DNA from: Pseudodesulfovibrio mercurii
Lineage (GTDB): Bacteria; Desulfobacterota; Desulfovibrionia; Desulfovibrionales; Desulfovibrionaceae
Assembly (NCBI RefSeq): GCF_000189295.2
Contig: NC_016803.1
Location: 840,001 to 872,000 of the forward strand
Direction: 5' to 3'
Length of the DNA: 32,000 bases
Shown here: positions 10,137-13,167 of the stretch, piece after piece
Numbering within the stretch: the first letter of the stretch is position 1
How the letters are laid out: every line of letters begins with the position of its first letter
Position numbers and translations under genes: made by a program
Notes under the pieces: model-generated
Seen by the model: only the letters and a program-made list of their open reading frames with translations
What the model was told of the DNA's origin: nothing
The model's database searches: none

Positions 10137-10138
10137 TT

Positions 10139-10254
10139 GCCTCCGGCGGCCGGGGGAAGGGGGAGGGGAAACCCTTTGAAAAGGGCTTTCCCCTCCCCCT
10201 TCCCCCGGACCCCCTTCCCCCTTCCCTTCCTAAACTTTTTATCGCCGCTTCGCG
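10139..10254 (+). repeat. Intergenic repeat family, copy A (head - long purine/pyrimidine hairpin - tail)
   Basis: Head GCCTCCGGCGGCC. Near-perfect hairpin CCGGGGGAAGGGGGAGGGGAAACCCTTT GA AAAGGGCTTTCCCCTCCCCCTTCCCCCGG (10150-10208). Tail CCCTTCCTAAACTTTTTATCGCCGCTTCGCG. Head and tail recur at 12815 and 21628. Confidence 0.85.
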
Positions 10255-11396: not shown

Positions 11397-11780
11397 ATGT
11401 CCGATATCCAGCTCATCCACACCGACAAGGCCCCGGCCGCCGTGGGTCCCTACTCCCAGGCCACCGCCGTGAACGGCACCCTGTACGTGTCCGGCCAGCT
11501 CGGCATCATCCCGTCCGAAGGCAAGCTGGCCGAGGGCTTCAAGGCCCAGACCCGCCAGGCCCTGGAGAACCTGAAGGCCATCCTCGAAGAGGCCGGATCG
11601 TCGCTCGACAAGGTCATGGCCGTGGACGTGTTCATCATGGACATGGGCCGGTTCGCCGACCTCAACGCCATCTACGCCGAGTACTTCTCCGCCCACAAGC
11701 CCGCGCGCGCCGCGGTCCAGGTGGCCGCCCTGCCCCTGGGCGGACTGGTCGAGTTCAAGTGCACGGCCGTCATCGACTAG
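11397..11780 (+). CDS. ridA: RidA/YjgF/TdcF-family reactive intermediate deaminase
   Basis: AAGGAG SD. 127 aa. TDKAPAAVGPYSQA...GTLYVSGQ and C-terminal AARAAVQVAALPLGGLVEF are typical of the family. Only the last 127 codons of ORF 10134..11780 are credible. Confidence 0.9.
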   Translation: MSDIQLIHTDKAPAAVGPYSQATAVNGTLYVSGQLGIIPSEGKLAEGFKAQTRQALENLKAILEEAGSSLDKVMAVDVFIMDMGRFADLNAIYAEYFSAHKPARAAVQVAALPLGGLVEFKCTAVID

Positions 11781-11802: not shown

Positions 11803-11832
11803 TTGACAGTTCTCGCGCAAAACGGCTACCTC
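11803..11832 (+). promoter_or_regulatory. Possible promoter of the aroA' leader
   Basis: TTGACA 11803-11808 and, after 18 nt, TACCTC 11827-11832. The -10 is weak. It would place the transcription start close to ATG 11839. Confidence 0.3.
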
Positions 11833-11838
11833 TGACGC

Positions 11839-11913
11839 ATGCACAGCAACACCGCCCGTTTCTTTTTCTTTTTTAGCTTTATCAGGAACGCCTGCGGTCT
11901 TGGTGTGCGCTAG
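11839..11913 (+). CDS. Phe-rich leader peptide MHSNTARFFFFFSFIRNACGLGVR (attenuator sensor ORF)
   Basis: ATG 11839 to TAG 11911-11913, read directly. Codons 8-12 are TTC TTT TTC TTT TTT and codon 14 is TTT. Too short for the ORF track. Lies between ridA and an aromatic-pathway gene and is followed by alternative helices. Confidence 0.6.
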   Translation: MHSNTARFFFFFSFIRNACGLGVR

Positions 11914-11951
11914 TCAATAAACAACGAAGAACAAACCAAGAGGCCGCGGGC
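11890..11951 (+). promoter_or_regulatory. Putative antiterminator helix
   Basis: GCCTGCGGTCTTGG (11890-11903) can pair with CCAAGAGGCCGCGGGC (11936-11951): 6 bp, a 2-nt bulge, then 8 bp including one G-U. This sequesters the 5' arm of the terminator. Confidence 0.5.
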
Positions 11952-11975
11952 AAAGTCCGCGGCCTCTTTCTTTTC
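11938..11975 (+). terminator. Intrinsic terminator / attenuator upstream of aroA'
   Basis: Perfect 12-bp stem AAGAGGCCGCGG (11938-11949) / CCGCGGCCTCTT (11957-11968) with a 7-nt loop, followed by TCTTTTC. Lies 40 nt before the aroA' start, so it is not at the end of any gene. Confidence 0.8.
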
Positions 11976-12013
11976 GGGCCGCGCCGCAGCCGGAACCAGC
12001 AAGGAGCAACGCC

Positions 12014-12805
12014 ATGCATCTCGGAAAAGCCATTCGGATGGAACGGATCATGAACCGCAACGACGGCCGGACCATCGTAGTCCCCCTGGACCACGGCGTG
12101 ACCGTGGGCCCCATCTACGGCATCGTGGACCTGCGCGAGACCGTCAACCAGGTGGCAGAGGGCGGGGCCAACGCCGTGCTCATGCACAAGGGCATTCCCC
12201 GCTGCTCCCACCGCGCGGGCGGCAAGGACATCGGCCTGATCATCCACCTGTCCGCGTCCACCTCGCTCTCGCCCTTCCCCAACGCCAAGACCATGGTCGG
12301 CACCGTGACCGACGCCCTCAAGCTCGGCGCGGACGCCGTGTCCATCCACGTCAACCTCGGCGACGAGACCGAGCCGCAGATGCTCGCCGACCTCGGCAGG
12401 CTCTGCTTCGAGGCCGCCGAATGGGGCATGCCCGTGCTGGCCATGATGTACGCGCGCGGCCCCAAGATCAAAAACGAGTACGACCCGCAGGTTGTGGCCC
12501 ATTGCGCCCGCGTGGGCGTGGAGCTCGGCGCGGACATCGTCAAGGTCAACTACACCGGCGACCCCGAATCCTTCGCCCGCGTGGTCGAGGGATGCTGCGT
12601 GCCCGTGGTCATCGCGGGCGGCCCCAAGCTCGACTCCGAACGCGACCTCGTCCAGATGGTCTACGACTCCATCCAGGCGGGCGGCTCCGGCCTGTCCGTG
12701 GGCCGGAACATCTTCCAGCACCCCCACCCGGCCAAGATCGTGGCCGCCCTCAACAAGGTCGTCCACGAAAACTGGACCGTCGACGCCGCCATGGAGCTGC
12801 TGTAG
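12014..12805 (+). CDS. aroA': Class I aldolase of the DeoC/LacD superfamily, 2-amino-3,7-dideoxy-D-threo-hept-6-ulosonate synthase type (MJ0400-like AroA')
   Basis: AAGGAG SD 7 nt upstream. [33 protein letters not shown] and DIVKVNYTG (Schiff-base Lys context) blocks match the archaeal-type aro aldolase found in Desulfovibrio. Confidence 0.8.
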
Positions 12806-12814
12806 GCAAGGAAT

Positions 12815-12980
12815 GCCTCCGGCGGCCGGGGAGAGGAGAGGGAAACCCTTTGAAAAGGGTTGTCCCTCTCCCCTATCGCGGCTGTCGCCATCTCTAAGGC
12901 TCGAAGACTCGCCAAGAGCTGCCGCTCCCCCGGCCCCCCATCCCCTCTCCCTTCCTAAACTTTCTGGCGCCGCTTCGCGG
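12815..12980 (+). repeat. Intergenic repeat family, copy B
   Basis: Starts 10 nt after the aroA' stop. Head GCCTCCGGCGGCC. Imperfect hairpin 12828-12873 around AAACCCTTTGAAAAGGGTT. About 50 nt of extra sequence, then tail CCCCCGGCCCCCCATCCCCTCTCCCTTCCTAAACTTTCTGGCGCCGCTTCGCG. Confidence 0.8.
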
Positions 12981-13080: not shown

Positions 13081-13167
13081 GCCGAAGGCACACAAAAAGT
13101 TTGGGAGATTCTTAAGAACCTTTTTCAAAAGGTTCTTAAGCCGTCGGAGACGCCCCGCCGGCGAGGC
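13081..13167 (-). repeat. Intergenic repeat family, diverged inverted copy D with perfect 14-bp hairpin
   Basis: Minus strand reads GCCTCGCCGGCGGGG...CTTAAGAACCTTTT GA AAAAGGTTCTTAAG...CTCCCAAACTTTTTGTGTGCCTTCGGC, i.e. the same head/hairpin/tail order. Starts 12 nt after the stop of the minus-strand Hpt gene. The hairpin (13111-13140) probably acts as a bidirectional terminator. Confidence 0.6.

Follow-up and report, generated by a model that had tools for sequence, protein, structure and literature searches.

How is the first step of aromatic amino-acid synthesis controlled in a bacterium which enters the pathway through an archaeal-type enzyme? The question is raised by the region upstream of aroA' in a stretch of 32,000 nucleotides (nt) of Pseudodesulfovibrio mercurii (NC_016803.1, positions 840,001 to 872,000), here called the window; coordinates count from its first letter, and aroA' and the parts of the element described here are on the forward strand. 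The gene aroA' (12014-12805) encodes 2-amino-3,7-dideoxy-D-threo-hept-6-ulosonate (ADH) synthase, the entry enzyme of the route to 3-dehydroquinate (DHQ) which is independent of 3-deoxy-D-arabino-heptulosonate 7-phosphate (DAHP). An initial annotation, made from the letters of the window alone, had assigned the product to the class I aldolases of this route, and the assignment holds: the protein belongs to Pfam DeoC and scores 401 bits against the ADH synthase equivalog TIGR01949, whose cutoff is 299.

The element upstream of aroA' is very likely a ribosome-mediated phenylalanine (Phe) leader-peptide transcription attenuator of this gene. Several features by which such attenuators stand out are found here: clustered codons for one amino acid, a terminator, an antiterminator exclusive of it, a geometry which distinguishes a stalled ribosome from one at the stop codon, and a pathway gene downstream.

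A leader open reading frame rich in phenylalanine codons

The leader open reading frame (ORF) extends from an ATG at 11839 to a TAG at 11911-11913 and encodes 24 residues, MHSNTARFFFFFSFIRNACGLGVR. Six of its codons specify Phe. Codons 8-12 form an uninterrupted run (TTC TTT TTC TTT TTT), which a single AGC separates from the sixth, codon 14 (TTT); together these regulatory codons occupy 11860-11880. The initial annotation had described the ORF with its six Phe codons, four of them TTT, and had remarked on the use of TTT in so GC-biased a region. The ORF is present exactly as described, and the bias is pronounced: G+C makes up 65.9% of the window, whose genes contain 3 TTT to 78 TTC, against 4 to 2 in the leader (Fisher 2e-4). 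In a six-frame translation of the 32 kb the leader is the sole case of an eight-residue stretch with at least five Phe, and it is the only one of the small ATG-initiated ORFs in the window to carry a Phe run.

A genome scan with AroA' as query returned 80 loci, the nearest of which belongs to Pseudodesulfovibrio karagichevae (96% amino-acid identity). The comparative set consists of the window and 24 Desulfovibrionaceae loci (L001-L023 and L025), 25 sequences in all. Every one of these has the same layout upstream of aroA': an ORF of 22-36 codons with an aromatic run, the motif CCUGYGG, a stop codon, a spacer and a GC-rich terminator. The spacer from the leader stop to the terminator measures 20-32 nt in all 25 and is A-rich and G-poor in most; that of the window (11914-11935) is 58% A and 8% G. 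Conservation of the Phe run had been proposed as a test of the initial annotation, and an aromatic run is found in all 25 sequences as well as in L024, a locus outside the set.

The way in which the leaders vary is characteristic of coding sequence. The frame is kept across homologues, gaps in the aligned leader region are multiples of three, and the distance from the ATG to CYGYGG takes nine values between 47 and 77 nt, all of them 2 modulo 3, in 23 of 24 loci. In the leaders inspected, C interrupts the U-run at third codon positions only. In other lineages Tyr and Trp codons make up the run, the class of amino acid being kept and the RNA sequence not: the run reads AYAFFWFYFWF in L022, YGYFYFWFYFWFGY in L024, FWGFFYF in L025 and FYYFYYWY in Desulfoluna-type loci. 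Frame conservation, the third-position C and the class-conserving swaps to Tyr and Trp all argue that the leader ORF is translated. TTT is enriched across the leaders as it is in the window, with a TTT:TTC ratio of 99:65 as against 13:52 in the adjacent aroA' genes, where it is the rare codon. Slower wobble decoding of TTT, sharpening the stall, is one possible reason for this. Leader peptides of this kind appear to be absent from the protein collections searched, as eight of them gave no match in NCBIfam and exact look-ups of ten among some 15 billion proteins found none.

Two mutually exclusive helices

Beyond the leader ORF the RNA contains an intrinsic terminator, called as such by a terminator scan, with a 12-bp stem formed by 11938-11949 and 11957-11968 and followed by the U-tract TCTTTTC (11969-11975); both had been reported in the initial annotation at these positions. 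The scanner extends the stem to 14 base pairs (bp), 10 of them G-C, with a 3-nt loop, and the hairpin has a predicted stability of -27.1 kcal/mol. In the nomenclature used for attenuators, the 5' arm of the terminator (11938-11951) lies within segment 3 (11936-11951), whilst the 3' arm (11955-11968) and the U-tract constitute segment 4 (11955-11975).

Segment 3 has a second partner. Segment 2 (11884-11908) contains a core, GCCUGCGGUCUUGG, at 11890-11903, which is the 5' arm of the antiterminator, and the competing sequences 11890-11903 (GCCTGCGGTCTTGG) and 11936-11951 (CCAAGAGGCCGCGGGC) are complementary. With the upstream RNA masked, RNAfold reproduces the pairing which had been proposed between them: 6 bp and, beyond a 2-nt bulge, 8 bp including one G-U. 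The mutual exclusivity of this helix and the terminator, likewise predicted at the outset, is seen in folds of the individual sequences. The region as a whole is strongly structured, its 146 nt folding at -56.6 kcal/mol (z = -5.06) with none of 200 shuffles equally stable. In the full-length minimum-free-energy fold, segment 1 (11841-11863) pairs with segment 2 (11884-11908) as the classical 1:2 hairpin of an untranslated leader, and segments 3 and 4 form the terminator. The 1:2 hairpin has a z of -3.6 in the window and of about -3.5 in close relatives.

Both competing helices are conserved by compensatory change, the check which the initial annotation had named for its proposal. Pairing was counted in a MAFFT alignment fitted to no structure. 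The terminator is 93.9% paired across the alignment, and both sides have changed at 6 pairs; the antiterminator is 88.2% paired, and both sides have changed at 8 pairs, a number reached by 5 of 500 shuffles. When the antiterminator partner is slid to other registers, pairing falls to 35-54%. In L020, for example, CCUGCGG/CCGCAGG has become CCUGUGG/CCACAGG. Furthermore, antiterminator folds are about 4 standard deviations more stable than those with a shuffled segment 2, the native fold being equalled by none of 200 shuffles in each of 7 loci. RNAalifold, also named as a check, recovered the terminator from the alignment and failed to recover the alternative helix; since it returns the terminator alone, this method cannot by itself reveal the second structure.

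The C-terminus of the leader peptide, xCGLGVR, is conserved. These residues are encoded by the stretch of RNA that takes part in pairing, and they vary in step with segment 3. Close relatives share segment 2 nucleotide for nucleotide, which implies selection on the RNA.

Ribosome position as the predicted sensor

Counted along the window RNA from its predicted start, the Phe run occupies nt 22-42, the core of segment 2 nt 52-65 and the stop codon nt 73. The consequences of this spacing were modelled for the 25 sequences by folding the transcript up to the terminator loop, before the 3' arm has been made, with the RNA covered by the ribosome removed. When the A site is placed on the first aromatic codon of the run or on its middle one, pairing of the terminator's 5' arm to segment 2 amounts to 0.63-1.0 in each of the 25 sequences. 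The window in this stalled state is 0.85 paired, and the modelled energy is -27.2 kcal/mol, close to the -27.1 of the terminator. Moving the ribosome to the stop codon lowers this pairing to 0.0-0.62, and to 0.01 in the window. The opposition of stalling to arrival at the stop codon, on which the initial annotation had rested its case, thus holds in the modelled states of every sequence.

The following sequence of events would account for these features. Transcription would begin at the TTGACA promoter, at or adjoining A11839, giving an RNA with AUG at its 5' end which ribosomes would probably enter as a leaderless message. When Phe-tRNA is scarce, a ribosome would stall on codons 8-12 (11860-11874), covering segment 1 and leaving 11890-11903 free. 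This sequence would pair with 11936-11951 once it is made, sequestering the 5' arm of the terminator and allowing readthrough into aroA'. When Phe-tRNA is plentiful, the ribosome would pass segment 2 and reach the TAG; the terminator (11938-11968) and its U-tract would then form, yielding a transcript of about 135 nt. RNA which is not translated, including read-through from ridA, would fold into the 1:2 and 3:4 hairpins and terminate. By this means the expression of aroA' would be coupled to the supply of charged tRNA-Phe.

Promoter geometry and a predicted leaderless start

No Shine-Dalgarno (SD) sequence is found upstream of the leader ATG, in agreement with the initial annotation; aroA', by contrast, is preceded by AAGGAG (12001-12006), and GGAG or AGGAG is found before its start in homologues. 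The two promoter elements which had been proposed lie where they were placed. The -35 hexamer (11803-11808) is a perfect TTGACA, conserved amid otherwise variable sequence, and after an 18-nt spacer follows a weak -10-like hexamer, TACCTC (11827-11832), of which the TA alone is conserved. A perfect TTGACA is present in the window and in 24 of 25 related loci, 36-37 nt upstream of the leader ATG (39 nt in L007). The TA dinucleotide of the homologues, read by eye, lies constantly 18 nt past TTGACA, and the hexamer which it opens stops 6-7 nt short of the ATG in 24 of the 25 sequences with TTGACA, the interval in L007 being three nt longer. From this fixed geometry of TTGACA, TA and ATG, transcription would be expected to start at, or one base before, A11839.

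Leader versions in the Desulfobacterales, unlike those of the Desulfovibrionaceae, have SDs and 5' untranslated regions. The fixed promoter geometry, the lack of an SD, the normal SD of aroA' and the SDs of the Desulfobacterales leaders together make it somewhat more probable than not that the leader ORF is leaderless in the Desulfovibrionaceae. The idea had been offered as speculative, and the constant distance from TTGACA to ATG lends it support.

Alternative explanations

It could be argued that the hairpin is simply a constitutive terminator of ridA, that U-rich sequence merely happens to read as a Phe-rich ORF and that aroA' has a promoter of its own. The RidA-family gene (11397-11780) ends 22 nt before the leader -35, and the terminator scan calls no terminator between its end (11780) and the attenuator hairpin, leaving ridA without one of its own; ridA is upstream of the element in 15 of the 25 loci, and the hairpin also scores as a minus-strand terminator. 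However, a gene present at only 15 of 25 loci is in itself a sign that the element belongs to aroA' and not to ridA: the 10 loci without ridA still have both leader and terminator before aroA', and elsewhere the two precede aroK-aroC. Between the U-tract and the aroA' ATG there are 38 nt which hold the SD alone. Thus aroA' must be transcribed through the terminator, and there is no room for a separate promoter. A conserved TTGACA between ridA and the leader, together with the conserved frame and aromatic codons, is equally at odds with a chance ORF behind a ridA terminator. On the grounds that the element follows aroA' and that an aroA' promoter cannot be accommodated, this explanation was rejected, and its probability is put very low. 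The attenuator terminator probably does end ridA transcripts too; read-through RNA from ridA would contain the SD-less leader ATG internally and should stop at this hairpin. This would probably be a subsidiary task of one and the same hairpin, not an alternative to attenuation.

A different possibility is that the switch is genuine but is read by something other than the ribosome, a protein, tRNA or metabolite binding the RNA in the manner of TRAP, PyrR, a T-box or a riboswitch. The absence of an SD, the nucleotide identity of segment 2 in close relatives, with its implication of RNA-level selection, and a 2005 listing which in its table says just 'putative attenuator' (PMC1173090) would all be compatible with this. 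Such a switch would not be expected to keep an ATG always equally far from the promoter, an open frame and indels in multiples of three, to vary within the run at third codon positions alone, or to exchange the run for codons of Tyr (UAY) and Trp (UGG) in other lineages, nor does any Rfam family match at its gathering score; the explanation is considered improbable. Alternatively, the leader may be translated and the stall may report translation capacity, the modification state of tRNA-Phe, or arrest by a poly-Phe/ACGLGVR nascent peptide. Enrichment of the wobble-read TTT and conservation of the C-terminal xCGLGVR are what this would predict, but the conserved C-terminus is the RNA pairing segment, changing with segment 3, and the regulated genes are always of the aromatic pathway and the run always of aromatic codons. 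This explanation, also improbable, would refine the signal and leave the mechanism the same. Finally, the terminated leader of about 135 nt might act in trans as a small RNA, with control of aroA' secondary. Such an RNA would be stable and highly structured, and there is a precedent in the attenuator-derived rnTrpL of Sinorhizobium (PMC6614838). The cis-acting switch nevertheless explains all the conserved features, and a trans-acting role is compatible with attenuation, not exclusive of it. As a replacement for attenuation it is the least probable of the explanations considered.

Several observations sit less comfortably with attenuation by a translating ribosome and have to be set against it. 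The -10 element of the window is poor, and because of this weak TACCTC a generic sigma-70 promoter scan makes no call at the leader promoter. In a ribosome-free transcript ending before segment 4 the antiterminator is still the equilibrium fold, with the consequence that termination of untranslated RNA must rely on the 1:2 hairpin, which is made earlier, acting kinetically; across the family this hairpin is only weakly conserved, at 70.6% paired with z values from +0.1 to -5. The shuffle controls for covariation overstate significance, as the sequences are phylogenetically related. Sensing of Phe alone is an odd form of control for an entry step common to Phe, Tyr and Trp. That transcription starts at the leader ATG, that the ORF is translated and that read-through answers to Phe are all inferred from sequence.

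Relation to known attenuators

The logic of the element had been likened at the outset to that of the pheL-pheA and pheM-pheST attenuators. With these it shares a short ORF with a Phe run, a terminator, an antiterminator and the position of the ribosome as sensor (PMC3082878; PMC11802643), and the likeness of mechanism is supported in silico. It differs from them in that the gene controlled is that of the ADH-route entry enzyme, not pheA or pheST, and in that the leader lacks an SD and lies at the predicted transcription start. The pheL genes catalogued in the survey consulted are confined to the gamma subdivision (PMC3082878). A query of Rfam, which the initial annotation had recommended, gave as best match RF01859, Phe_leader (35.7 bits, E = 0.0013, at 11843-11972); the score falls short of the gathering score of 55. 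In seven divergent homologous loci there was no Phe_leader match at E <= 0.1 and no family reached its gathering score. In the Rfam alignment the U-run is paired to the A-rich spacer, a helix other than the one conserved here. Phe_leader, moreover, is found upstream of pheA in Gammaproteobacteria, whereas here ADH synthase lies downstream and the closest relatives are in Pseudodesulfovibrio. The element is an analogue, and not a member, of the gammaproteobacterial family.

The closest functional analogue is the aroR leader of Corynebacterium glutamicum. Its Phe-Tyr-Phe codons precede aroF, a DAHP synthase gene, and the system is reported to respond when Phe is limiting but to be indifferent to how much Tyr is available (Neshat et al. 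2014, in the summary given by PMC11802643). Both are attenuators with aromatic codons in the leader acting on the first aromatic step, and the response of aroR to Phe parallels the Phe-only leader found here. The two are from different phyla and have no sequence relationship; aroF specifies the canonical DAHP synthase, and aroR has three regulatory codons where the present leaders have 5-8.

Leaderless small ORFs are known to serve as amino-acid attenuators in Actinobacteria, the poly-Cys ORFs of mycobacteria being an example. These resemble the element of P. mercurii in that a regulatory ORF without an SD opens the transcript, the leaderless start here being predicted from promoter geometry; the phylum (Desulfobacterota) and the amino acid sensed are different.

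The element has one apparent forerunner. A table published in 2005 lists a "putative attenuator" ahead of the aroA' supraoperon of Desulfovibrio vulgaris (PMC1173090). The entry is an automated call of a terminator and antiterminator, and the searched text of that paper mentions neither a leader peptide nor regulatory codons, and has nothing on covariation or distribution. Relative to the D. vulgaris supraoperon, the operon of the window is reduced to aroA' and its leader is Phe-only. From L022, L024 and L025, which have this type of operon and carry the element with mixed Phe/Trp/Tyr (F/W/Y) leaders, the D. vulgaris attenuator would very probably belong to the same family of elements. The element is not mentioned by Rodionov et al. 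2004, Naville & Gautheret 2010 are silent on it, and literature searches on DVU0460 and on leader-peptide attenuation in D. vulgaris found nothing. A family of aromatic-leader attenuators in the Desulfobacterota has therefore apparently not been described, although the mechanism itself is textbook and the automated call of 2005 precedes the present analysis.

A possible wider family

A covariance model was built on the Desulfovibrionaceae sequences with the terminator as the only structure supplied. It matches L024, which was not in its training set, with 57.6 bits; the element there precedes two tandem aroA' paralogues. Beyond the Desulfovibrionaceae there are matches in Syntrophaceae and Desulfobacterales at L041 (38 bits), L027 (33) and L045 (29), and weaker ones at L048, L049 and L070. 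The related leaders of the Desulfobacterales are rich in Tyr, Phe and Trp. Their pairing register differs, GGUCUGCC pairing with the terminator loop, and they were kept out of the antiterminator counts. In folds, most elements of the wider set follow the same logic of stalling versus reaching the stop codon.

In some Desulfobacterales loci a second copy of the element lies some 2 kb ahead of the one before aroA' (L062:1227-1355, L038:1269-1397, L049:1539-1672), with leaders such as ...GFYFSFYWRGPPMR, MGHIQTRRNLYFYFWRTSPPGV and MQTTRPAQTIYYFWYQRRGLPMG. In L062, on which the Pfam scan was run, the second copy precedes genes for shikimate kinase and chorismate synthase (aroK-aroC); the sizes of the downstream ORFs and the start of the first of them in L038 and L049 match those in L062.

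The operons which follow the element are aroA'-aroB'-pheA-aroE in Desulfobacterales, aroA'-aroB'-pheA in L025, and in L022 and L024 two copies of aroA' followed by aroB', pheA and the gene for 5-enolpyruvylshikimate-3-phosphate synthase, the order reported for D. vulgaris. That leaders with Phe, Tyr and Trp codons stand before operons of the aromatic pathway gives the family functional coherence. The leaders are Phe-only before a stand-alone aroA' (about 21 loci) and mixed F/W/Y where they head the supraoperon (3 loci). With 3 loci to set against about 21, it is suggestive that leader composition tracks operon content.

It is attractive to consider that these elements constitute an unrecognised, Desulfobacterota-wide family of aromatic attenuators over the ADH synthase and DHQ synthase II route and aroK-aroC. 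The Desulfovibrionaceae members would be leaderless, with the AUG at +1, 36 nt from the -35, and UUU-enriched; break-up of the operon would have been accompanied by retuning of the regulatory codons, from F/W/Y before the supraoperon to Phe-only before aroA' and Tyr-rich in Desulfobacterales. This proposal is plausible but tentative, and is held with distinctly less assurance than attenuation of aroA' itself.

More elaborate arrangements occur in some loci. Desulfoluna-type leaders (MIRFFSAFYYFYYWYHIGVPRHAL...) are found in L044, L053, L057, L060 and L066, about 170-260 nt upstream of aroA'. Between these leaders and the terminator lies an additional hairpin that lacks a U-tract (GCCGUGGGUAGACC...GGUCCCACGGC). 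The 3' arm of this hairpin can also pair with the 5' arm of the terminator, which hints at a switch of greater complexity. L027, L045, L048 and L070 have two tandem terminator-like hairpins, about 25 and 70 nt past the leader stop, which may be a double attenuator. In L022 (4001-5638) and L024 (3179-4801), tandem aroA' paralogues of the DeoC aldolase family lie behind a single attenuator and are followed by aroB'.

Genomic neighbourhood of aroA'

The next gene after aroA' in the window is a convergent gene for an Hpt-domain protein, and aroA' is for this reason monocistronic, as had been proposed. AroA' proteins are poor in Phe: in a small sample there are 2-4 Phe codons in 263, compared with 3.6% Phe in the genes of the window. 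A low Phe content would fit an enzyme needed during Phe shortage.

Copies of an intergenic repeat follow feoB (10138-10254) and aroA' (12814-12979), sharing blocks of 23, 47 and 54 nt which are 79-91% identical. Each has a long G/A-rich hairpin, such as that formed by 12832-12851 and 12855-12874, and the repeat looks like an element of the repetitive extragenic palindrome (REP) or miniature inverted-repeat transposable element (MITE) type. Between the convergent aroA' and Hpt-domain genes there is also a near-perfect AT-rich palindrome, TTCTTAAGAACCTTTT..AAAAGGTTCTTAAG, at 13109-13145, which is probably a bidirectional terminator; Rfam matches to plastid untranslated regions at this palindrome were judged spurious.

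Significance

Attenuation of aroA' by a Phe leader would tie the archaeal-type entry step of aromatic synthesis to the supply of aromatic amino acids in sulfate reducers, and it supports the role annotated for aroA'. The element is a conserved cis-regulator for which Rfam has no model, and a covariance model of it could now be prepared and put to use in annotation; as candidate Phe-responsive parts, its leader and terminator could be of use in the genetics of Desulfovibrio. For specialists, interest may centre on three points: the leaderless start which is predicted, the bias towards TTT, and the way in which leader composition is retuned with operon content. Should the predicted start prove correct, it would show how an attenuator which senses the ribosome can work in a Gram-negative lineage with no SD sequence. 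Leaders which are Phe-only, mixed F/W/Y or Tyr-rich provide a natural series in which the evolution of attenuator specificity can be followed alongside operon content. Should the Desulfobacterota-wide family prove real, it would constitute regulatory evidence that the ADH route is the working entry pathway to the aromatic amino acids in these organisms.

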